64,000 nt of DNA, from NCBI GenBank assembly GCA_041671485.1, contig JBAZBL010000004.1:14445-78444 (forward strand), read 5' to 3'. How positions within the stretch are numbered: the first letter of the stretch is position 1; each line of letters begins with the position of its first letter. The translations under genes and the position numbers were made by a program. Source of the DNA: Minisyncoccota bacterium. Its GTDB lineage: Bacteria > Patescibacteriota > Minisyncoccia > Phycocordibacterales > PALSA-1337. The notes beneath the pieces were generated by a model, which made no database searches, was not told the DNA's origin, and saw only the letters and a list, made by a program, of their open reading frames with translations. This document shows positions 12,701 to 64,000 of the stretch, in pieces.

Positions 12701-14776
12701 ATGCCCTCACTCAACCTCCAACAACAAAAAGCCGTAGATACGCATACTGGTCCTGTGCTCATAATCGCAGGAGCAGGGGCGGGCAAAACGCGTGTAATCA
12801 CTCATAGAATATTGAACCTCATCAAAAGTGGTATTGCGCCTGACAGTATTCTCGCAATAACTTTTACGAATAAAGCTGCCAAGGAAATGAAAGAGAGGGT
12901 TTTCGATCTACTAGAGAATGAAAAGAGTTTGAACTTGCCAATTACAGCAGATTGGCAAAATGAAAAACCATTTGTTAGTACTTTTCATTCGCTCGGCGTA
13001 TACATCATACGAAATCATGCGAAAGAATTTGGACTGAATAGGCATTTTACGATATACGATAGAACAGATTCGAAAAGGGCCGTGAAAGAGGCAATGATGC
13101 AAGCATCTGTTGATCCAAAAAAGTTTGATCCTGGTTTTATATTAAATAAAATTTCATTGACAAAGGGTGATGGACTCGGCCGACTACAATATCTAGATAG
13201 TTCGAAGGGATTTGTAGAAGAGATAGTCGCAGAAGTTTGGGAAAAGTATGATGCTATATTGGCGAAAGACAAAGCATTGGACTTCGATGATCTACTGTCA
13301 AAAACGGCTCAACTAATTGGCAGAAATGAAAGCCTGAAAAAATTCTATGGTAATAAATGGAAGTATATCCATGTAGATGAATATCAAGATACAAATAAAG
13401 TCCAATACAATCTCATCAAATATCTAACCGAAGGACATGTCTTGTCTGGACAAGAAAAAAATATATGTGTGGTAGGTGATATAGATCAAAATATATATAG
13501 TTGGCGAGGTGCAACGATAGAAAATATTTTGAATTTCGAAAAAGATTATCCAGAATCACAGGTGATCACTCTCGAGAAAAATTATCGCTCTACGAAGATC
13601 ATCTTGGCAGCAGCAAATGATGTCATAAAGAAAAATGTAATGCGTAGAGAAAAAACTCTTTATACAGACAATGTTGAGGGAGACAAAATATCTATCCTTG
13701 TTTCTTATACAGAAGACGATGAAGCTCGCTCTATTGCAGATAATGCAAGAAAACTGATAGAGAATGGTGTTGAAGCAAAAGAAATAGCTGTTTTGTATAG
13801 AGCCAATTTCCAGTCCAGAGCATTGGAAGAAGCATTTATCAAAAAAAATGTACCATATCAACTTTTGGGTACAAAATTCTTCGAAAGAAAAGAGGTAAAA
13901 GACGTTCTTGCATACATTCGAGCTGCACTGAATCATGGTAGCTTGTTGCAAGAATCACACTCTTCAAAAGGATTGCACGAAGCGAAGCGAGGGGTGGGTG
14001 ATATTTCAGAAAATGAAAGTTGGGGAGATATAGCTAGAATAATAAATATACCAGCAAGAGGGATAGGGAAGGTAACAGTTGCAAAGATACTAAATGCAAG
14101 ATCTGATCTTGTGACTCTTCCCATGCCAATACAAGATAAAGTCAGAGAGTTTTTCAAATTGCTTGAAGATATTGGTAAAGAAATAATAGAGAAAAAGCCG
14201 TCTGAAGTAGTCAAATTTGTGATCAAAGAGACAGGCATGGAGAGGATGTACAAAAAAGGAGATAGTGAAGATGAAGAGCGTCTTTTGAATATGCAAGAAT
14301 TGGTATCTGTTGCAATGCAATACGATAGTGCAACCGTTGCGGAAGTGCGACCTCCGCAACCTCCGCATTTAGAAGGAATCGAGAAAATGCTAGAAAACGC
14401 AGCGCTTGCAACAGATCAGGACGAAATCAAGGCAGATAAAAATGCAGTTAGACTCATGACTGTACATGCATCGAAAGGGCTAGAATTTGAGCATGTATTC
14501 ATTGCAGGAATGGAACAAAACCTTTTTCCATTCAAGCATATGGATGAAGAGAAAGTGAGCAAGTCCGAGGAAGAAGAAGAGAGACGTTTATTCTATGTTG
14601 CACTTACGAGAGCGAAGAAGAGGATATGTTTGAGCTATGCAATAGTCAGAACTATTTACGGTGCACAGAGAGTGAATACTCCTTCAGAATTTATAGATGA
14701 TATAGATAAGGGACTAATCGAAGAGCAGGTAGTAGAAAAACCAACAGGTGCAAAAGCGATATTTATTGATTTTTGA
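12701..14776 (+). CDS. uvrD: ATP-dependent DNA helicase UvrD/PcrA. It carries an in-frame GC-rich hairpin (14336-14360)
   Basis: Superfamily-1 helicase motifs: GAGAGKT Walker A, DEYQDT, and the VHASKGLEF region. Confidence 0.9.
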   Translation: MPSLNLQQQKAVDTHTGPVLIIAGAGAGKTRVITHRILNLIKSGIAPDSILAITFTNKAAKEMKERVFDLLENEKSLNLPITADWQNEKPFVSTFHSLGVYIIRNHAKEFGLNRHFTIYDRTDSKRAVKEAMMQASVDPKKFDPGFILNKISLTKGDGLGRLQYLDSSKGFVEEIVAEVWEKYDAILAKDKALDFDDLLSKTAQLIGRNESLKKFYGNKWKYIHVDEYQDTNKVQYNLIKYLTEGHVLSGQEKNICVVGDIDQNIYSWRGATIENILNFEKDYPESQVITLEKNYRSTKIILAAANDVIKKNVMRREKTLYTDNVEGDKISILVSYTEDDEARSIADNARKLIENGVEAKEIAVLYRANFQSRALEEAFIKKNVPYQLLGTKFFERKEVKDVLAYIRAALNHGSLLQESHSSKGLHEAKRGVGDISENESWGDIARIINIPARGIGKVTVAKILNARSDLVTLPMPIQDKVREFFKLLEDIGKEIIEKKPSEVVKFVIKETGMERMYKKGDSEDEERLLNMQELVSVAMQYDSATVAEVRPPQPPHLEGIEKMLENAALATDQDEIKADKNAVRLMTVHASKGLEFEHVFIAGMEQNLFPFKHMDEEKVSKSEEEEERRLFYVALTRAKKRICLSYAIVRTIYGAQRVNTPSEFIDDIDKGLIEEQVVEKPTGAKAIFIDF

Positions 14777-14784
14777 TTCCTTGA

Positions 14785-14891
14785 AAGCAAGGCGCAATAT
14801 TGTATTTGTATGGAAATTAAAGTGGACGGAAGTACACAAAACACATCTAATAATTTAATTTCCATACAAATACAATATTGCGCCTTGCTTT
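14785..14891. repeat. Large perfect inverted repeat (37-bp arms, ~32-nt loop) between uvrD and rsmA
   Basis: aaagcaaggcgcaatattgtatttgtatggaaattaaa ... tttaatttccatacaaatacaatattgcgccttgcttt. Confidence 0.85.
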
Positions 14892-21712: not shown

Positions 21713-22354
21713 CCATTGAATATGACAACCAAATCCAAAACAACACAAGACTTTGTACCCATTCAGGAAATACGTGATGGTGTAGTAATACTCCGAAATG
21801 GTGGCATGAGATCTGTCATACTCGCATCATCATTAAACTTTGCACTCAAATCGGCTGATGAACAGGCATCTATCATGTATCAATTCCAGAATTTCCTCAA
21901 TTCACTGGACTTTTCTATACAAATATTTATACAATCAAAAAAGCTAGATATCAGGCCATATATCGCTCTTTTGGAAGAGAGATACAAAGAGCAAGTATCA
22001 GAACTTATGAAGATACAGGTGCGTGAATACATAGAGTTCGTAAGAACATTTGTCGAAAATACAAATATCATGACAAAGAATTTCTTTGTTGTTATACCTT
22101 ATGATCCGCCTATCATAGGTGGTGGCAAGAATCCTATCTCAAGATATTTTCCTGGGAAAGACAATGTTGGTCCAACACCAGATGAAAAATTCCAAGAATA
22201 TCGCACCCAGCTAGAACAGAGGGTTTCTGTTGTGGAACAAGGACTAGTGAGGTGTGGTGTCCGAACTGCAGAACTTGGTACCGAAGAAGTGGTCGAACTA
22301 TTTTATAAATTATTCAATCCAGGAGAGACAGAGAAGCCGATACAAATCACATGA
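21707..22354 (+). CDS. VirB4/TraC N-terminal-domain-like protein (separate ORF)
   Basis: The F.PIQEIRDGVV.LRNGG.R.V pattern resembles the N-terminal domain of VirB4/CagE ATPases. It ends 46 nt before the ATPase ORF, in a different frame. Confidence 0.45.
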   Translation: MTPLNMTTKSKTTQDFVPIQEIRDGVVILRNGGMRSVILASSLNFALKSADEQASIMYQFQNFLNSLDFSIQIFIQSKKLDIRPYIALLEERYKEQVSELMKIQVREYIEFVRTFVENTNIMTKNFFVVIPYDPPIIGGGKNPISRYFPGKDNVGPTPDEKFQEYRTQLEQRVSVVEQGLVRCGVRTAELGTEEVVELFYKLFNPGETEKPIQIT

Positions 22355-22400
22355 ACCATGCACAATTATTACATCATATATCAATAGAGCAATCAATAAT

Positions 22401-24215
22401 ATGAGCATATTCAATAAATTATTTGGTAAGAAAGATCAATCGCCGATTGTTTCGGTTTTGCCCGAAGAAATATATCAGGCGGGTATCTTGGAATTGAAAG
22501 ATGTAATAGCTCCGTCTGCACTCAAGGTCAGTCCAAAAGAATTGAACCTAGGAGAAAAGGTGGGTAGAACACTATTTGTAATATCATATCCACGATTCTT
22601 GCAAGAAAGTTGGTTTGCACCGATCATCAATCTGGACAAAGTATTCAACGTCTCTATCTTCATACATCCCGTTGATACTGCAAAGATATTGCGTCATTTC
22701 CAGAAGAAGGTTGCAGAGGTACAAAGCCAAATATCTAGAAGAGAAGAGAAGGGTTTGGTGCGTGACCCAGGACTAGATACAGCATATCAGGATCTCGAAT
22801 CGTTGAGAGATCAGTTGATGCAGGCTCAAGAGAGACTATTTGATGTAGGAGTATATATAACACTGTTTGCAGATTCCGAAGGAGATCTCGATAAACTCGA
22901 ATCTGAAATCAAATCTATACTTGAATCAAAACTAGTATATGTAAAACCAGCACTTTTCCAGCAAGAACAAGGATTCAAGAGCGTGTTGCCACTTGGAGAC
23001 GATCAATTGAATGTTCATTCAAAGCTCAATTCTTCACCACTTTCAAGTCTATTCCCATTTGTATCATTTGACCTAACGTCAGATAAGGGAATACTGTATG
23101 GCATAAATAGACACAATTCATCACTGGTTCTTTTTGACCGATTCCTTCTTGGTAACTACAACTCTGTAACATTTGCAGTTGCTGGGGCAGGCAAATCGTA
23201 TTGCACAAAGCTAGAGATATTACGCACGCTCATGTTTGATACAGATGTTCTAGTTATTGATCCAGAAAAAGAATATGAATACATGGCAGAAGCAACCGGT
23301 GGCAAATACTTCAATATTTCTCTCAATTCAGAGCACCATATCAATCCATTTGATCTACCAGTACCAAGAGAAGATGAATCTACAAGCGATGTTTTGCGAT
23401 CAAATATAATTAACTTGGTTGGTCTATTCAGGATAATGTTGGGTGGTCTGTCCCAAGAAGAAGATGCGATCATAGATCGTGCAATAACAGAGACTTATGC
23501 ACTCAAAGACATTACTCCTGATTCTGATTTTCGAAATGTTGAACCACCACTACTATCAGATTTTGAAATGGTACTGGGTGGAATGGAAGGCGCCGACTCT
23601 TTGGTTGAGAGATTGTCCAAATATACAAAAGGTACATGGTCGGGCTTTATAAATAGACCTTCAAATATAGATATAAATAAGAAATTTATAGTATTTTCTC
23701 TAAGAGATATGGAAGATGAATTGAAACCCGTAGCAATGTATCTCATAACTCACTATATATGGAATGCTATACGCAAAAATCTCAAGAAAAGACTACTTGT
23801 CATCGATGAAGCATGGTGGATGATGAAGTCCGAAGATACAGCATCATTTTTGTTTGGCCTAGCAAAAAGAGGTCGAAAATACTTCCTTGGTCTTGCAACA
23901 ATAACCCAAGATGTGGATGATTTCTTGAAATCTCCATATGGTATGCCCATCGTCACAAATTCATCTATACAGATACTATTAAAACAGTCGCCATCGGTCA
24001 TTGACTATGTACAGAAAACATTCAACCTTACAGATGAAGAAAAATATTTATTGCTAGAATCAGATATAGGAGAAGGCATGTTCTTCGTCGGACTAAAACA
24101 TGTTGCAATGAAAATAGTTAGTTCATATACAGAAGATCAGATCATCACCACAAATCCACAGCAAGTTATGGATATAAAGAGGGCAAAAAAAGAGCTTGAA
24201 GACGCGGGACAATGA
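22401..24215 (+). CDS. virB4: VirB4/TraE/TrsE-family type IV secretion ATPase (C-terminal ATPase portion)
   Basis: Walker A (FAVAGAGKS), Walker B (LLVIDEAWW) and strong VirB4-family resemblance. The probable start is the MSIFNK Met at 22401 rather than the upstream 22254. Confidence 0.8.
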   Translation: MSIFNKLFGKKDQSPIVSVLPEEIYQAGILELKDVIAPSALKVSPKELNLGEKVGRTLFVISYPRFLQESWFAPIINLDKVFNVSIFIHPVDTAKILRHFQKKVAEVQSQISRREEKGLVRDPGLDTAYQDLESLRDQLMQAQERLFDVGVYITLFADSEGDLDKLESEIKSILESKLVYVKPALFQQEQGFKSVLPLGDDQLNVHSKLNSSPLSSLFPFVSFDLTSDKGILYGINRHNSSLVLFDRFLLGNYNSVTFAVAGAGKSYCTKLEILRTLMFDTDVLVIDPEKEYEYMAEATGGKYFNISLNSEHHINPFDLPVPREDESTSDVLRSNIINLVGLFRIMLGGLSQEEDAIIDRAITETYALKDITPDSDFRNVEPPLLSDFEMVLGGMEGADSLVERLSKYTKGTWSGFINRPSNIDINKKFIVFSLRDMEDELKPVAMYLITHYIWNAIRKNLKKRLLVIDEAWWMMKSEDTASFLFGLAKRGRKYFLGLATITQDVDDFLKSPYGMPIVTNSSIQILLKQSPSVIDYVQKTFNLTDEEKYLLLESDIGEGMFFVGLKHVAMKIVSSYTEDQIITTNPQQVMDIKRAKKELEDAGQ

Positions 24216-24339
24216 TATTACAGATCGCGACCGTCGAGGCGGCGACAAATGTCGACTTGGCGAAGCCAACGAAGACATTTAGTCGCGCCGAGGAGGGAGC
24301 GCTGTGTTTGGAGAAATAGTACTGTGTTATAATTTTGTC

Positions 24340-37559: not shown

Positions 37560-37832
37560 TTCGGTTTGAATATGATAGCATAGTCATAAACGAGCCTGTG
37601 AACCTCTAAGCAATGGCCTTCCGAGGTTTGGGCATGGTGCTAAGGACATTCTGGTTTTCTTTTTTATAAAGAAGTGACTGGAATCATCCTCGGGACCCTG
37701 CCTCGCTTGTCGCATCACGCGACAAGATATTGCTTAGAGATTTATGGGCTCGTTTTCTCTCTTTTGCAACACTAGCGCCACGACAATAAAAAAGCAATTT
37801 TTTCTGTGGATTACTTTTATGATATATTGGAT

Positions 37833-39947: not shown

Positions 39948-42521
39948 ATGGATAAAAATAATGATCGAAATAGACTAGTTCTTCTAGATGTACATGCAAT
40001 ATTACATCGTGCATATCATGCTTTACCAGACTTCATGACAGCGAAAGGTGAGCCAACAGGAGCATTATATGGTCTTTCTTCTATGCTTATCAAGATTATT
40101 GACGATTTGAAGCCAGACTATCTCATAGCTTGCTATGATGTAAAAGGTCCAACTCATAGGCATGAATTGTATAAAGCTTATAAAGCCGACAGGAAAAAGG
40201 CTGAAGATGATCTCATAAAGCAGATAATCAAGTCTCGCGAAGTATTCATTTCTCTCAATATTCCTATATATGATAAACAAGGCTTTGAAGCGGATGATAT
40301 TTTGGGGACGATCGTTGAGAAGATCAAAAATCAAAAATCAAAAATAAAAGATAAAGGACAGAACGCGGGATTAGAAATAATTATTGCATCGGGAGATATG
40401 GATACGATGCAATTGGTAAAAGGGGATGATGTAAAAGTATATACTCTCAAAAAGGGTATAAATGACACAATTATTTATAATGAAAATGCTGTAAATAAAA
40501 GATTTGGTTTTGGTCCAGAATTGATACCAGATTACAAAGGATTGCGCGGAGATCCGTCTGACAATATTCCCGGTATCAAAGGAATTGGTGAAAAGACAGC
40601 AACTATACTTATTCAAAGATTTGGAAAGATTGAAAATATATTTCATGAATTGGAATTGGGTCATAAAGAAGAATTTGAGAAAATTGGTATTACACCTAGA
40701 ATGATAAAGATTATCGAGGAGAATAAAGAAGAAGCGGAATTTAGCAAAATGCTTGCCACGATAAATAAAGATGTGCCTATAGATTTTGAATTACCCACCA
40801 AAACATTCAAAGAAAATATTGATTCGAAGAAAATAGGGGATCTGTGGCGCGAATTAGAATTTAGAACATTGCCACAGAGGTTTGAGAAAGTTATTGGGGG
40901 ACTGTTTACAGGACGAAACCTTGAAGATATGGTTCCTTCACCCACTTCGCCCCGCGACTCCGCAAATATGGCTTCCTCACCCACGATCGGCCTCGCCGAC
41001 ACTGACAAAACGCTCGGCGAGGCCGTCTTTTCTCGGCGGGGATTGTCGGGCGATAGAACTATTGGTCTCCACCCCGCCTCCGAAGAGGGTTCGGAAGCCA
41101 TATTTGCGGAGTCGCGGGGCGAAAACGACAAATCATTCAAACAAACAGCAATTGCATTGTGGCTTCTGAATTCGAATACTACGAATCCAAAAATGGAAGA
41201 TGTGTTAAATTTTGCAGGCACAAATGATTTTGATCAAGCTAGTAAGATCATATTCAAAGAAATAGATCAAAAGGGATTGAGAAAAGTTTATGATGATATA
41301 GAATTGCCACTTATCGACACAATAGACAAGATGGAAAAGAGAGGAATCAAAATTAATAAGAGTATATTCGGAGAATTATCAAAAAAATATCATATAGAAC
41401 TTGAAATTCTAGAGAAAAAAATATGGGATATTGCTGGGTGTGAATTTAATATCAATTCACCCAAACAATTGGGAGAACTATTGTTCGATAAACTTGGTCT
41501 CAAGATAAAAAATGCAAAGAAAACAGGAGGAGGAGCGCGCTCTACGAGAGAATCAGAATTGGAAAAGATGGTGGATATGCATCCGATAATTAATTTTATA
41601 TTCCAATATCGTGAATTAGCAAAATTATTGTCTACATATATTGATGCAATACCACCACTTTTGGATGCAAATAACAGATTGCATACACATTTCTTGCAAA
41701 CAGGCACGACAACTGGACGAATGGCATCGCAAGATCCAAATATGCAGAATATTCCTATTAGATCGGACTATGGTAAAGCGATAAGAAAAGGGTTTGTTGC
41801 GGAAGAGGGTTTTAAATTAGTCGCTTTTGATTATTCACAGATGGAATTACGAATATCAGCATTTCTTTCTCTGGATGAAAAATTGATTGAAATATTCAGA
41901 AACGGAGAAGACGTACATACTTCTGTGGCATCTTTTGTATTTGGTGTTGATCATTCAAGTGTTACTAAAGAGATGAGGAGAAAAGCAAAAGTAATTAATT
42001 TTGGAATTTTGTATGGTATGGGAGTAAATGCATTGAAACAAAATTTAAAGACGAGCAAAGAAGAAGCACAAAAATTCATGGATGATTATTTCAGAACATT
42101 CAGTGGACTTGCAAGCTATATAGATAAAGTAAAAAGTGAAACTGCCAATCGTGGTTATACAGAGACATTTTTTGGACGCAGGAGATATTTCGAAGGTATA
42201 AAATCTAGAATTCCATATATCAAAGCGCAAGCCGAGCGTATGGCCATAAATGCACCCATTCAAGGCACAGAAGCAGATGTGATAAAGCTTGCAATGGTAA
42301 AAATAGAAGAATATTTTAGGCGTGAGGATATAGAGAATGATGCATTTCTCTTGCTTCAAGTGCATGATGAACTCATATGTGAGGTAAAAGAAGATATTAG
42401 AGAGAAAGTTTCTAGGGACATTAAAAATATCATGGAATCTATAATAGATCCAAAAGATATTTCTGGAATTGTTTTGTCTGTTGAGGTGGCGATCGGCAAT
42501 GATTGGGGAGAACTCAAATGA
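39948..42521 (+). CDS. polA: DNA polymerase I (5'-3' exonuclease plus polymerase domains), carrying a 174-nt in-frame GC-rich palindromic element
   Basis: N-terminal FEN/5'-nuclease motifs (LLDVHAILHRAYHA; EADD) and C-terminal pol motifs A/B/C (DYSQMELR; KAKVINFGILYG; QVHDEL). Confidence 0.9.
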   Translation: MDKNNDRNRLVLLDVHAILHRAYHALPDFMTAKGEPTGALYGLSSMLIKIIDDLKPDYLIACYDVKGPTHRHELYKAYKADRKKAEDDLIKQIIKSREVFISLNIPIYDKQGFEADDILGTIVEKIKNQKSKIKDKGQNAGLEIIIASGDMDTMQLVKGDDVKVYTLKKGINDTIIYNENAVNKRFGFGPELIPDYKGLRGDPSDNIPGIKGIGEKTATILIQRFGKIENIFHELELGHKEEFEKIGITPRMIKIIEENKEEAEFSKMLATINKDVPIDFELPTKTFKENIDSKKIGDLWRELEFRTLPQRFEKVIGGLFTGRNLEDMVPSPTSPRDSANMASSPTIGLADTDKTLGEAVFSRRGLSGDRTIGLHPASEEGSEAIFAESRGENDKSFKQTAIALWLLNSNTTNPKMEDVLNFAGTNDFDQASKIIFKEIDQKGLRKVYDDIELPLIDTIDKMEKRGIKINKSIFGELSKKYHIELEILEKKIWDIAGCEFNINSPKQLGELLFDKLGLKIKNAKKTGGGARSTRESELEKMVDMHPIINFIFQYRELAKLLSTYIDAIPPLLDANNRLHTHFLQTGTTTGRMASQDPNMQNIPIRSDYGKAIRKGFVAEEGFKLVAFDYSQMELRISAFLSLDEKLIEIFRNGEDVHTSVASFVFGVDHSSVTKEMRRKAKVINFGILYGMGVNALKQNLKTSKEEAQKFMDDYFRTFSGLASYIDKVKSETANRGYTETFFGRRRYFEGIKSRIPYIKAQAERMAINAPIQGTEADVIKLAMVKIEEYFRREDIENDAFLLLQVHDELICEVKEDIREKVSRDIKNIMESIIDPKDISGIVLSVEVAIGNDWGELK
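40948..41121. mobile_element. 174-nt GC-rich element with perfect 29-bp terminal inverted repeats, in-frame within polA (RPE/MITE-like)
   Basis: Left arm cgccccgcgactccgcaaatatggcttcc (40948-40976) is the exact reverse complement of the right arm (41093-41121). The length is a multiple of three and inner palindromes are present. Confidence 0.7.
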
Positions 42522-43737: not shown

Positions 43738-43775
43738 TTGTCAACAAAGCCAGCTTGATGTATCATCTTAATCAT

Positions 43776-43849
43776 GCGCCCATAGCTCAGCCTGGTAGAG
43801 CACCTGCCTTTTAAGCAGAGGGTCGAAGGTTCAAATCCTTCTGGGCGCA
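43776..43849 (+). tRNA. tRNA-Lys (anticodon UUU)
   Basis: Acceptor GCGCCCA/TGGGCGC, D-arm GCTC...GAGC, anticodon loop CTTTTAA, T-arm GAAGGTTCAAATCCTTC, discriminator A; CCA is not encoded. Confidence 0.85.
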
Positions 43850-45424
43850 CCCTTCGCTAGATTTTATAAACATGTTGGAAGCTATAGGTTTCTTCGTATT
43901 TTGGCTTTTTTGTGATGCATGTTCTAGCTTCAAAAGTTGGTCAAAAAGTAGGGAGGGATTTGATTTTATTATAAGTCCATCGGTAACTTGGAAATTGTTC
44001 CAAAAGAATCCGAGATATTGTCTTTTGAGAGCGTCTGAAGCTTTTTGATATGCGTCATAAATATTTCTTGTGAGGTTCAGGATTTCTTGGGCAATATCGA
44101 CATTCACATTCTTCTGTTTCTCAAGTTCTATCAATCTATCGTCTATGTTTTGGATTTCTTGGTCTATTTCGGTCTTTACTCTCGTGAAGTCATTATCGGA
44201 AATGATATTTGAAAATAACTTTTCCTCCGCCACCTTTCTTTTGATTTCATAAGCCGTTCGTTGATTGATACATTCCTTTCTTCTGCTGTCATACGCCTTG
44301 CGCCGTTCATAGAAGATAACTTTTGCTTTGCTTATTACCATATCAATGAATGTTTGGCTGAATTCTATGGTCTTGAATTTCTCCGCGACCATGTCTTCTA
44401 GCTTGCCGACTTCAATGTATTTGCCACAACCCGACTGATTGGTGCAATGATAGTATGCTTTGCTCTTATTCAAATGCCATTCTGCGGAGTAACGACATTC
44501 ATGTGTATAACAACGGATGAAACCGCTCAAAAGCCAAGAGTATTTCCTCCTACGACAAGCGTGTTTGTTTTTCGCCATGATTACTTCTTGCACCTTGTTG
44601 AATAACTCCTCGCTTATAAGAGGTTCATGCTTTCCAATTTTGATGTGAATATCGCTCCAATGTACTTCGCCAATGAAAAACCTATTTTTCAGTGTGTTAT
44701 AGAGCTGGGCGTCAGATCGTTTACCACCATGTTTTGTCTGTAACCCTTTCTCAAACATAATGTCGTTTAGTTCGTAAACATTGTAATTGCCCGTTGCGTA
44801 CAGTTTGAACGCTTCCTTGACCAATGGTCCGTCATGTGGGTCAACGATAATACTTTTCTGACCAAAACGTCCGATAGATAAATTGGGGGTGCTGACATTT
44901 TTGTAGCCGACTGGAGCCATGCAAGGGTAGTAGCCCGCTTTGGCTTTTTCTTTCATTGTCATACTCACTTTTTCGGAAGTAATATCTCTATGAAATTGAT
45001 TCATTGACGCCATGACAGTGCCGACCATTTTGGAAGTCGCGGAATCATCCATATCTGGTTGCTGAATACACTTAACCAACACCCCATTTTTACGGAACAA
45101 ATCCATGAGGTTGAGATGGTCTAGGGTGTTACGAGCCAATCGGTCGCTGTGGACGACATAGATAGCGCCGATAGACTTTGCCAAGACAAGTTTGATGACT
45201 TGCTGAATGCCTGGTCTTTTCAAAGTACCAGCACTTTTGCCTTCATCTTTTATAACTTCTAATATTGAATATCCGTCATTTGTAGCGTCTTCGGTACAAA
45301 TATTTTCCTGTGATTCAATCGAAAGTCCTGTACTAGCTTGGTCATCAGTAGAAACACGGCAGTAAATTACTGCAGTCTTTTTGACGGCTTCTGATTGGTT
45401 TTCAACTCTTTGTATTGGTGTCAT
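43811..45424 (-). CDS. Large serine recombinase (resolvase/invertase N-domain, recombinase domain, zinc ribbon, coiled coil)
   Basis: N-terminal catalytic-Ser region (AVIYCRVSTDDQ) and a long C-terminal extension. The last 13 codons run antisense across the tRNA-Lys 3' half. Confidence 0.85.
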   Translation of the reverse strand: MTPIQRVENQSEAVKKTAVIYCRVSTDDQASTGLSIESQENICTEDATNDGYSILEVIKDEGKSAGTLKRPGIQQVIKLVLAKSIGAIYVVHSDRLARNTLDHLNLMDLFRKNGVLVKCIQQPDMDDSATSKMVGTVMASMNQFHRDITSEKVSMTMKEKAKAGYYPCMAPVGYKNVSTPNLSIGRFGQKSIIVDPHDGPLVKEAFKLYATGNYNVYELNDIMFEKGLQTKHGGKRSDAQLYNTLKNRFFIGEVHWSDIHIKIGKHEPLISEELFNKVQEVIMAKNKHACRRRKYSWLLSGFIRCYTHECRYSAEWHLNKSKAYYHCTNQSGCGKYIEVGKLEDMVAEKFKTIEFSQTFIDMVISKAKVIFYERRKAYDSRRKECINQRTAYEIKRKVAEEKLFSNIISDNDFTRVKTEIDQEIQNIDDRLIELEKQKNVNVDIAQEILNLTRNIYDAYQKASDALKRQYLGFFWNNFQVTDGLIIKSNPSLLFDQLLKLEHASQKSQNTKKPIASNMFIKSSEGCAQKDLNLRPSA

Positions 45425-48866: not shown

Positions 48867-49304
48867 GTAGAACTAAGTTATAACACATTCAAACTCGCTT
48901 TTGTATGGGTAACACTATTCTATCAAAATATTGTTTAAAAACATTAAAACAATCTTTTCTTAGAATCTAATAACTCGCTTTATCCGACATATATCATAGC
49001 TCTATCATAGGTCTTTCCAGTAACATCCAGTAACATTCATGGTTTTTTTATCTTTGAATCTTAGGTTTTCTTAGGTTCTTCAGAGTTATTCACAAAATAC
49101 TGTTTAGTGCTATTATAAGGCTACAACTGAATATGTAAGTAACCTAACCCAGTAAGCAATTGCTGGTATGGTGAAAAAGTCCTGACACGGATAAAGAACC
49201 CATCATATGGGGTTGCCGTGTCAGGCTATATCAGGAAACTGGTATAGAGGGCTTCGGTCCTCACCCATGTGGTGGGCTTTTTGCGTTCACTTCTTTAAAT
49301 ATTT

Positions 49305-63805: not shown

Positions 63806-63838
63806 AATCTTTGATCTTTAATCTTTGATTTATATTCT
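63806..63838. repeat. Upstream arm of tctttgat-unit inverted repeats bracketing tRNA-Arg
   Basis: aatctttgatctttaatctttgattt is complementary to 63921-63958 (aagatcaaagattaaaaatcaaagatcaaagatt). Confidence 0.7.
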
Positions 63839-63910
63839 GCCCTCGTCGTTCAACGGATAGGACTCAGGATTGCGGATCCTGTAATAGAGGTTCGATTCCT
63901 CTCGGGGGCA
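63839..63910 (+). tRNA. tRNA-Arg (anticodon GCG)
   Basis: Acceptor GCCCTCG/CGGGGGC, anticodon stem CAGGA/TCCTG with loop TTGCGGA, T-arm AGAGGTTCGATTCCTCT, discriminator A. Confidence 0.7.
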
Positions 63911-64000
63911 CCCGACTGAAAAGATCAAAGATTAAAAATCAAAGATCAAAGATTGATTCACTGTGGCGAACAAAAATAAGATCTAACAAAAAACATCCCG

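Follow-up and report, generated by a model that had tools for sequence, protein, structure and literature searches.

A palindromic block within polA

The window analysed here is a 64-kb stretch of DNA. It holds a single copy of a palindromic element, which lies in-frame within polA at 40946-41123 and is 178 nt long. The features of the gene and of the element copy are as follows.

39948..42521, + strand: polA, DNA polymerase I, 857 aa (open reading frame; database protein P0001 is 100% identical)
40927..40945, + strand: 19-nt partial direct copy, ATATGGTTCCTTCACCCAC (direct repeat D1, 84% identity)
40946..40976, + strand: left arm, 31 nt, 5' strand of P1 (perfectly complementary to the right arm)
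40977..41092, + strand: asymmetric core, 116 nt, comprising a 2x2 loop, P2 and a three-way junction (fold, family alignment, covariation)
40979-40982 with 41087-41090, + strand: P2, ACCC paired with GGGT (fold)
40985..41027, + strand: hairpin A (P3), GA-T-CGGCCTCGCCGA / loop / TCGGCGAGGCCG-TC (inverted repeat, fold, covariation)
41028..41086, + strand: P4 / hairpin B (fold)
41093..41123, + strand: right arm, 31 nt, 3' strand of P1 (complementary to the left arm)

A preliminary description of this DNA had reported a GC-rich palindrome of 174 nt; the composition and the symmetry were borne out, but the length had been set slightly short. GC content was 0.62 in the element versus 0.34 in polA without it, in agreement with the reported GC-rich block in an AT-rich gene, and the block was the strongest GC island of the window (peak 0.66 in 80-nt windows, mean 0.367). 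The 29-mer CGCCCCGCGACTCCGCAAATATGGCTTCC was found at 40948-40976 on the + strand and at 41093-41121 on the - strand with 0 mismatches (0 expected from 100 shuffles). The perfect 29-bp terminal inverted repeats noticed earlier are thus real, and perfect complementarity extends to 31 nt (40946-40976 / 41093-41123), with 37 nt pairing at 95%. The nested palindromes that had been mentioned correspond to the inner 12-bp hairpin CGGCCTCGCCGA/TCGGCGAGGCCG at 40988-40999 / 41014-41025.

Folding, which had been proposed as a check, gave a predicted RNA structure of -122 kcal/mol for the polA block, compared with -69 +/- 4.6 for shuffled sequences (z = -11.6). The core contains the family motifs TCACCCACGATCGG, CCGTCTTTTCTCG and CTCCGAAGAGGGTTC. 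The partial copy ATATGGTTCCTTCACCCAC reproduces the inner end of the left arm and the start of the core, and lies 39 nt upstream of the original; similar partial copies also adjoin the copies at loci L008 and L022.

The PolA protein and its linker

PolA P0001, from a Candidatus Paceibacterota MAG, carries PF02739, PF01367 and PF00476. The reading frame is preserved through the block, as had been stated. The insert spans residues 333-392 and separates the 5'-nuclease domain from the domain that follows it. Residues 318-392 were modelled by AlphaFold as coil with pLDDT below 50; the element has added about 60 residues to PolA, and these are predicted to be disordered. The open frame suggests that the insert is read through into protein. 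The antisense frame had been said to encode a near-identical peptide, which holds over the arms (SPRDSANMAS... / ...AIFAESRGE) but not in the core, which reads differently. The identical PolA is recorded under two NCBI accessions and at JGI and ENA, and the insert is therefore not a one-off assembly artefact.

Comparison with orthologues showed an indel. About 90 of 119 PolA orthologues lack the element and some keep remnants of it, so a homologous but non-palindromic segment is not a general property of these proteins. The linker is hypervariable, ranging from 42 to 127 aa; the shortest versions measure 42-46 aa and the one studied here 104 aa. The polA homology set of element copies includes one in reverse orientation. 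At two further loci, L052 and L053, this polA site is still occupied by a strongly folding palindrome whose core has diverged, indicating that structure persists in resident copies. This persistence could reflect selection at the level of either the host or the element.

A family of copies in Patescibacteria

An exact 21-mer of the window arm had no match in species-representative genomes because the arms are copy-specific, and a pattern derived from the core was needed. Scans with such patterns identified 35 distinct copies, all in Patescibacteria (Paceibacteria-type) assemblies apart from one chance exception. The genome scan yielded 21 loci, all in Patescibacteria MAGs except for the one chance match, and the metagenome scan added 24 more. 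Groundwater samples from Hainich are among those with copies. Nineteen copies lie in ORFs and 15 are intergenic; the latter occupy short gaps, some of them between convergent gene ends. Several MAGs carry copies on 2-3 contigs. Copy number was nevertheless low, at 1-3 per genome or contig, with one 857-kb contig holding a single copy, unlike a proliferating repeat.

All copies share an architecture in which self-complementary arms of 22-51 nt surround an asymmetric core of roughly 110 nt, a three-way junction with near-invariant motifs between variable arms. Conservation is far higher in the core motifs than in the arms, in intergenic copies too, which would not be expected if a parasite were decaying purely neutrally. 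The motif-based searches themselves account for some of this invariance, although ACCCACGAT, which the first scan did not require, was invariant in 22 of 23 copies. The base of hairpin A is conserved and its upper stem covaries. P4 has a conserved base (TTTTC:GAAGA), an internal loop, and then a variable stem (GGCGGGG/CCCCGCC in the window copy) with a variable tip; the stems of hairpin B vary between copies yet remain complementary.

Searches of other kinds returned little. Neither the window copy nor six other copies, each on both strands, matched an Rfam 15 family, nor did the whole window, and PhotoRC-I scores of 12-14 bits were regarded as noise. No copy was found in viral contigs, GenBank phages or plasmids. 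In about 0.6 Mb of flanking DNA, an nhmmer profile detected no decayed copies and, beyond the known copies, no match at all, nor was there any longer element sharing the same ends. Three frames of the encoded peptide, concatenated, matched nothing in a protein search, not even the source protein, and a profile of nine forward-frame peptides matched one 65-aa fragment. Such searches are too insensitive for a low-complexity insert of 60 aa. Across 34 copies, no target-site duplication was found at the boundaries and no terminal nucleotides were conserved. Insertion is therefore read here from comparison of sequences rather than from a pair of empty and filled sites in near-identical genomes.

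The block thus belongs to a family of GC-rich palindromes in Paceibacteria-type Patescibacteria, with 35 copies in intergenic DNA and in at least nine host genes. The search for further copies that had been recommended located homologous ones in related genomes, both in the spacers between genes and within eight or more other host genes. A literature search gave no paper describing such an element in Patescibacteria, as had been presumed, and the family is apparently undescribed.

Host genes, reading frames and orientation

By Pfam, the hosts of the in-ORF copies are DnaE, UvrD, a PIF1-like helicase, SecA, RecG, UvrA, RecO and ArgRS, in addition to PolA; seven of these nine genes serve DNA replication or repair. 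The copies sit in-frame in interdomain linkers, and in 19 of 19 cases the frame was kept and free of stops. Relative to the host transcript, 9 copies are forward and about 10 reverse. Only two reading frames, which mirror each other, are used by in-ORF copies. The unused mirror frame was also free of stops in 13 of 19 copies, compared with about 20% for other frames; intergenic copies no longer keep it open.

Both orientations were found at the same site in four host genes (polA, uvrD, pif1-like and uvrA). The PolA proteins P0014 and P0034 are 82% identical, and the reverse complement of the right arm of locus L004 is the left arm of L050, and vice versa, so that arm-specific mismatches were flipped together with the core. 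Read from these sequences, a resident copy has been inverted in place, arms included, in one PolA clade. Locus L051 is a half-deleted reverse copy. Within PolA clusters of 90% identity, no flipped variants were found that would indicate flipping at the population level.

Pairing, covariation and strand asymmetry

In the family alignment, compensatory changes were seen in 36 of 48 pairs, and 89% of cells were paired, as against 66% in shuffled and about 44% in slid alignments. These statistics leave out hairpin B, which MAFFT could not put in register. Hairpin A (helix 2) was 96% paired, with changes on both sides in 8 of 11 pairs. Very few one-sided G-U intermediates were present, and pairing was almost strictly Watson-Crick. 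Because changes were almost always double-sided and Watson-Crick, and because copies occur in either orientation relative to transcription, we place the constraint at the DNA level.

Transition mismatches in the arms were unevenly distributed. On the element + strand there were 33 A.C versus 11 G.T, counted with no correction for shared ancestry (23 versus 4 in ORF copies, 10 versus 7 in intergenic copies). The skew tracked the strand of the element and not the transcript. The complementary strand of in-ORF copies folded about 9 kcal/mol better. Structural selection on the mRNA was rejected in view of the orientation ratio of about 50:50 together with a wobble skew that follows the element and not the transcript.

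Probable movement between sites

The relationships among copies depart from the orthology of their host genes. The arms of L001 in polA and L013 in pif1 agree at 22 of 26 positions (median between copies, 8/26), the closest cores to that of L002 in polA are those of recG copies, and three intergenic copies of one MAG are each other's closest relatives. Arms therefore travel along between genes, and partial deletions occur. Near-identical arms were present in different genes belonging to different genomes, and for this reason the idea that arms are copied from the target flank at every insertion was rejected as a general rule; flank copying may, however, extend an arm.

We consider it probable that the polA block is a copy of a family of non-autonomous palindromic DNA elements that works like the Rickettsia palindromic elements (RPEs). 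The earlier proposal of an RPE-like selfish palindrome in an intact gene is supported by the indel among orthologues and by the further copies. Complementarity of arms and hairpins would be kept by intramolecular templated correction of a hairpin or cruciform, through quasi-palindrome template switching at the DNA level and not through selection on the mRNA fold. Spread would depend on a putative machinery, or on a route of recombination, for which the conserved three-way-junction core is the part that is recognised and the stem may have any sequence as long as it is paired. Candidate routes are a strand-specific mechanism acting on single-stranded-DNA hairpins, of the REP/RAYT or IS200/IS605 type, and gene conversion among copies and among genomes. 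The copies seen today would then be the survivors, inserted in tolerant linkers of long proteins and in stop-free frames only.

A bolder reading is possible but doubtful. It takes the core with its arbitrary arms as the substrate of a novel, structure-guided and strand-specific system of DNA mobilisation or maintenance in Patescibacteria. Such a system would act without terminal repeats or target duplications as its traces and would end up preferentially in replication and repair genes. Alternatively, the host may have adopted the element in those genes, either as a module that is in-frame and invertible or as a signal at the DNA level.

Alternative explanations

As a specific version of the mobilisation step, the element may be a REPIN-like or IS200/IS605-like hairpin that an HUH tyrosine transposase (RAYT-like), encoded elsewhere in the genome, moves in single-stranded form. 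This would account for two internal hairpins within a long foldback and for the lack of target-site duplications and conserved tips. The strand-skewed A.C/G.T mismatches and the better-folding complementary strand are what a folded intermediate specific to one strand would be expected to leave, but the skew is weak in intergenic copies and uncorrected for shared ancestry. CCGTC marks the foot of hairpin A on its 3' side, and a CGTC tag occurs in RPEs and in one REP superfamily; here, however, the motif overlaps paired bases and varies (CTGTC, TCGTC, CCTTC), so that any match in geometry is tentative. Intragenic REPs show the same bias towards replication and repair hosts, but the CGTC REPs are themselves without a known transposase (PMC3733652). 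On balance we regard movement of this kind as unlikely.

The same host bias, in 7 of 9 genes, could instead point to a nucleic-acid signal that serves the host in replication and repair genes and is kept by selection, rather than to a parasite. Such a signal might act in the mRNA, as a hairpin to which a regulator or nuclease co-regulating these genes binds, or in the DNA, as a cruciform site for a DNA-binding protein. Near-invariant core motifs beside saturated arms, strong covariation, low copy number, recurring sites and the fold retained in the diverged residents L052 and L053 are consistent with it. Insertion in either orientation (9 versus 10, and both at the same site in four genes) means, however, that in half of the mRNAs the motifs would appear as their reverse complement. 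The near absence of G-U intermediates, a mismatch skew set by the element strand, PolA orthologues that mostly lack the element, half-deleted copies, copies between convergent gene ends and the lack of an Rfam family also argue against such a signal, which we judge quite unlikely. The orientation argument bears on the mRNA version and not on a double-stranded-DNA site, for which we found no positive support.

An ordinary MITE, that is, a deletion derivative of an insertion sequence whose terminal inverted repeats are recognised by a DDE transposase, would be small, with long terminal inverted repeats and multiple intergenic and intragenic copies, as observed. It is very improbable, since the tips are the least conserved part of the element (median 8/26 between copies) and the conserved part is internal; moreover, the 34 copies share neither terminal nucleotides nor a target-site duplication, and no longer element with the same ends turned up in the roughly 0.6 Mb of flanking DNA.

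Removal after transcription or translation, as by an intron or intein, would yield a protein without the insert. A highly structured RNA in a conserved enzyme would fit, and inteins also favour replication and repair proteins. We nonetheless find this hardly credible: a length of 178 nt or 60 aa falls short of that of group I and II introns and of inteins, neither strand matched an Rfam family, group I and II introns included, and the element works in both orientations. Splicing would not require open frames, so the stop-free frame in 19 of 19 in-ORF copies, mostly shared by the mirror frame, also counts against removal. A native, lineage-specific PolA linker that is palindromic by chance, or a foldback chimera of assembly, might be suggested by the hypervariable linker (42-127 aa) and the single copy in the window, but can practically be dismissed, having been refuted by the same core in eight other genes and in intergenic DNA of dozens of independent assemblies, by the identical PolA from several sources and by the GC contrast (0.62 versus 0.34).

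Significance

When protein-coding palindromes were first described, they were taken to be peculiar to Rickettsia. The Patescibacteria family is an independent case in a very different small-genome, host-dependent lineage, again in replication and repair enzymes, and the phenomenon looks less like a curiosity than like something to which reduced AT-rich genomes generally lead. It offers a clean system for studying movement without transposase hallmarks, the long-term matching of arms in palindromes, and the reasons why DNA-repair genes are favoured hosts. The inserts inflate and diversify the linkers of core proteins in Patescibacteria, and they confuse the alignment of orthologues, the placing of domain boundaries and the prediction of structures. 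Copies of the family can be located with the core motifs as a simple marker.

Comparison with known systems

In bacterial MITEs such as Correia/NEMIS, ERIC, RUP, Nezha and QMITE, the terminal inverted repeats are conserved and the target site, often TA, is duplicated (PMC2229807, PMC10969869, PMC5896051). The present family resembles them as small non-autonomous repeats with inverted-repeat ends, stable predicted hairpins and occasional in-frame fusion to ORFs, but lacks their conserved tips and target-site duplications. The palindromic GC clusters, or double-hairpin elements, of fungal mitochondria are about 42 nt long with putative target duplications (PMC4478555). They too are GC-rich palindromes in AT-rich genomes, with a sporadic distribution, constrained stems and spread by recombination or conversion with no known transposase (PMC4478555); they are, however, much shorter, organellar and eukaryotic, and share no sequence relation with the family.

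In-frame palindromic repeats outside Rickettsia that are biased to replication and repair genes have already been documented (PMC3733652). Intragenic REPs tagged with GTAG or CGTC are in excess in uvrA, uvrB, recB and tRNA synthetase genes (Di Nocera et al. 2013, PMC3733652). REPs are units of 20-40 bp, usually abundant, whose inverted dimers can form larger foldbacks, and the CGTC REPs are hairpins whose stems measure 8-9 bp and whose tag, at one end, is unpaired (PMC3733652). The likeness extends to hairpin repeats in a foldback, in-frame location within genes, the bias to replication, repair and tRNA synthetase genes, the lack of target-site duplications and perhaps the CGTC-like motif at the foot of a hairpin. 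In contrast, the Patescibacteria element is a single unit of about 170 nt with two different internal hairpins and long arms, and its CGTC motif is partly base-paired and variable.

RPEs are described as palindromic repeats of 100-180 bp that form long stem-loops and have arms of about 12 bp; R. conorii has 44 copies of RPE-1 (Ogata et al. 2000, 2002, summarised in PMC10969869 and PMC2229807). The window copy, at 178 nt with 31-bp arms, is likewise a palindromic repeat with a long stem-loop. Both groups are dispersed through intergenic and intragenic sites, at a low number per genome in Patescibacteria, both occur in small, AT-rich, reduced genomes, and both insert in-frame and leave the host ORF open, which in the present family would, judging from the frame, add a peptide. 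The accessible RPE literature yielded no description of in-place flipping with both mirror frames open. Beyond the host phylum, the two differ in copy number (1-3 per genome here versus the 44 reported for RPE-1), in arm length (22-51 bp here versus the reported 12 bp or so) and in the part that is best conserved, here an internal asymmetric three-way junction. As its hosts are Patescibacteria, the family is at most an analogue of RPEs; the RPE-like reading is supported, and the Patescibacteria family is distinct, with an architecture of its own.

The polA copy of the window

The GC-rich element lies in polA and is bounded by long terminal arms.

39948..42521, polA host gene, in which the element forms residues 333-392
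40946-41123, the element (31-nt arms at 40946-40976 and 41093-41123)

The perfect terminal arms of the preliminary description are real: the 29-mer occurs once per strand with 0 mismatches, and none is expected in shuffled sequence. However, the element is somewhat larger than described, since complementarity is perfect over 31 nt and the palindrome measures 178 nt. As had been reported, the block is GC-rich within an AT-rich gene (62% GC against 34% in the remaining polA), forming the strongest GC island of the window, and it encloses a nested palindrome, found here as a 12-bp inner hairpin. Its predicted fold reaches -122 kcal/mol, compared with -69 in shuffles (z -11.6). The proposal that the antisense frame encodes a near-identical peptide holds across the arms but not elsewhere. 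In the AlphaFold model, residues 318-392 are low-confidence coil, with the 5'-nuclease domain on one side and the next domain on the other. A 'Candidatus Paceibacterota' MAG protein, recorded by several sources, matches the window PolA at 100% identity. The window holds 1 copy; a partial copy of the core's 5' part lies just outside the arm in three copies of the family, this one among them (40927-40945).

The gene order T2SS-type ATPase, polA, tsaE, holA is conserved in three loci with a polA copy (L001, L002 and L004), with dnaN ~10 kb upstream, so that the polA copy probably lies near the replication origin. Some 1.3 kb downstream of polA in the window, the 3' end of a tRNA-Lys gene (43775-43852, +) overlaps an opposite-strand ORF (43811..45424) that encodes a 537-aa large serine recombinase; this region (43775-45424) resembles the border of an integrated element.

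A family of palindromes with a common core

Copies beyond the window were sought, and the element proved to be a family, with 35 distinct copies after removal of duplicates, as counted by motif scans that the subfamily at loci L052 and L053 (below) would escape. Searching species-representative genomes with an arm 21-mer gave no match. A pattern of two invariant core motifs yielded 21 loci in a genome scan, all but one from Patescibacteria MAGs (Paceibacterota, Nomurabacteria, Taylorbacteria, Parcubacteria and similar); the exception, in Entotheonella, does not align, and one such match is about the number expected by chance. With a three-motif pattern, metagenomes gave 24 further loci and viral contigs gave none; GenBank phages and plasmids held no copies. 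Several MAGs carry copies on two or three contigs. Each genome or contig has few copies (1-3), and an 857-kb contig has just one. A profile search of ~0.6 Mb revealed no further or decayed copies.

All copies share one layout: arms, a 2x2 loop, a 4-bp helix and a three-way junction. The outer arms span 22-51 nt with mean complementarity of ~91%, and are perfect in six copies. Inside the 2x2 loop, the helix ACCC:GGGT is invariant. From the junction extend hairpin A, with the base GAT-CGG...CCG-TC, and another arm, in which the variable hairpin B stands on a conserved base (TCTTTTCTCG...CCGAAGA). The search patterns imposed the invariance of TCTTTTCTCG and GAAGAGGGTT, whereas ACCCACGAT is invariant in 22 of 23 copies although the first scan did not require it. 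The core is conserved across copies while the arms saturate. Arm and upper-stem sequences differ freely among copies, yet are matched inside each copy: both sides changed in 36 of the 48 predicted pairs, paired cells amounted to 89% (66% when shuffled, ~44% with partners slid), and the covariation score was 0.63 versus 0.19. Rfam contained no family matching either strand of the window copy or of six other copies.

Host genes and reading frames

Nineteen copies lie within long ORFs. The ~15 others occupy short intergenic gaps, often where two genes converge or within a few bases of a preceding stop codon. The in-ORF hosts are as follows.

PolA, in the linker
DnaE, at the finger/HhH interdomain site
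UvrD/PcrA
PIF1-like helicase
RecG, after the wedge domain
UvrA
RecO
SecA
ArgRS

Every in-ORF copy sits in a loop or between annotated domains, and 7 of the 9 host genes function in DNA replication or repair. The same unexplained bias (uvrA, uvrB, recB, tRNA synthetases) was noted for intragenic REPs and Rickettsia palindromic elements (RPEs) by Di Nocera et al. (PMC3733652).

Only two frames are used, forward 'SSPTIG...SFL/VFS...SEEGSE' and reverse 'EPSS...PRKDG...PIVGEE' (9 and ~10 copies, respectively). These are mirror frames, in which the arms read identically in either orientation of the element. Of the 19 in-ORF copies, 13 have no stops in the unused mirror frame, compared with ~20% for other frames; in intergenic copies that frame contains stops.

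Insertion and inversion in PolA

The segment is an insert: ~90 of 119 PolA orthologues have nothing resembling it, and linkers across the 119 range from 42 to 127 aa (104 aa in the window). In orthologues P0014 and P0018 a homologous segment is present and faces the same way, and the linkers of P0058, P0034, P0036 and P0088 resemble the antisense translation. The DNA of those loci agrees, with a homologous ~125-nt core that is forward in L001 and L004 and reverse-complemented in L002. Related elements also occupy this site in the nearest PolA relatives of the window.

L052 2395-2685 and L053 2395-2694, variant element with core GCGTCTGGTTCTCG...CTCCGAAGC, lacking the ACCC:GGGT helix
L054 2350-2496, palindromic arms around a core fragment only

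The L052 and L053 elements have similar arms and a diverged core, and fold strongly, at -143 and -125 kcal/mol.

Both orientations occur at the same site across genomes in PolA, UvrD, the PIF1-like helicase and UvrA. The clearest case comes from a PolA clade of 82% overall protein identity, where the element is forward in L001 and L004 and reversed in L050. The left arm of L050 is the reverse complement of the right arm of L004 (signature ACAAAGATGC), and its right arm that of the L004 left arm (GGAATCTTTAGTTT). The same resident element, arm-specific mismatches included, has thus been inverted in place. A reverse copy, L051, has lost its left half. No flipped variants were found within PolA clusters of 90% identity; within this limited sample, inversion is thus evolutionary and not phase variation.

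A different in-frame palindromic family, reading ...AKAGIQ... and ...LDSRLRGND..., occupies the same linker in other Paceibacteria (P0070, P0078, P0115, P0029, P0043); the PolA linker thus collects several families of such inserts. This second family is also present in the N-terminal region of a SecA (L012) that itself carries the element studied here.

Possible movement or conversion between sites

The arms travel with the element: those of L001 (polA) and L013 (a pif1-like gene of another genome) agree at 22 of 26 bases, and the window arm resembles that of a uvrA copy at 19 of 26, the median between copies being 8 of 26. Core similarity does not follow host-gene orthology. The L002 polA core is closest to recG copies (83-84%, versus 60-66% for other polA copies), three intergenic copies in one Nomurabacteria MAG are mutually closest (82-93%), and copies of one genome have signature substitutions in common.

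Level of constraint

Three observations make a function in the mRNA unlikely: copies occur in both orientations with respect to transcription, hairpin A has very few one-sided G-U intermediates, and the skew of arm mismatches follows the strand of the element rather than that of the host. A signal serving the host is an improbable reading, despite the repair-gene bias. On the strand bearing TCACCCACGATCGG, transition mismatches in the arms numbered 33 A.C and 11 G.T (10:0 for in-ORF copies oriented as the host, 13:4 for those opposed, 10:7 for intergenic copies), a skew that is suggestive only, as counts are uncorrected for shared ancestry. The complementary strand of in-ORF copies folds ~9 kcal/mol better. 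Some process acting on the DNA may keep the palindrome matched; mutation by quasi-palindrome template switching is a known phenomenon. An activity specific for both structure and sequence, and possibly for one strand, would read the core. A RAYT/IS200-like single-strand route, one form that a selfish element could take, seems improbable.

Other palindromes and RNAs in the window

Further structured sequences were observed in the window.

14784-14891, perfect 38-nt AT-rich inverted repeat with a 32-nt spacer, filling the gap between the stop of a UvrD/PcrA-like ORF (12701..14776) and the next ORF
24226-24300, imperfect palindrome rich in GC, GGCGACAAATGTC...GACATTTAGTCGCGCC, in the gap that separates a VirB4-like ATPase ORF (22254..24215) from the following ORF
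37590-37750, intergenic, ~170 nt, with a long closing stem (-81 kcal/mol, z -8.6)
49141-49262 (+), match to LOOT RNA (RF03000) at 85 bits (gathering score 46)
63806-63954, tRNA-Arg (63838-63913) flanked by AT-rich inverted repeats, ATCTTTGATCTTTAATCTTTGAT and its complement

The first, the strongest fold outlier of the window, has no sequence relationship with the polA element. The second may belong to another palindromic repeat family. The third, which had no Rfam family at the gathering threshold, may represent either a further palindromic element or an RNA that lacks annotation.

Comparison with known elements

The preliminary description proposed a selfish element like the RPEs, and in-frame linker copies, further copies in other genes and absence from most PolA orthologues bear this out. 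The best reading, which we consider probable, is a selfish, non-autonomous palindromic element with RPE-like behaviour. In-frame copies are tolerated in linkers of long housekeeping proteins and would be read through as disordered peptide; resident copies can be inverted and partly deleted in place, and the element would occasionally move or convert between sites. Readings of the segment as an artefact, a native linker or an intron or intein are essentially excluded.

Conserved tips and target duplication are two defining tests of MITEs, and the element fails both: the copies have neither target-site duplications nor terminal nucleotides in common. The element may be related to CGTC-tagged REPs and RPEs. 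Our literature search found no description of such elements for Patescibacteria/CPR, and a large MITE census (PMC11602168) does not mention the phylum. In-frame palindromic repeats and their repair-gene bias are already known from other bacteria (PMC3733652). The element is therefore a new family, of distinct architecture and in a new lineage.
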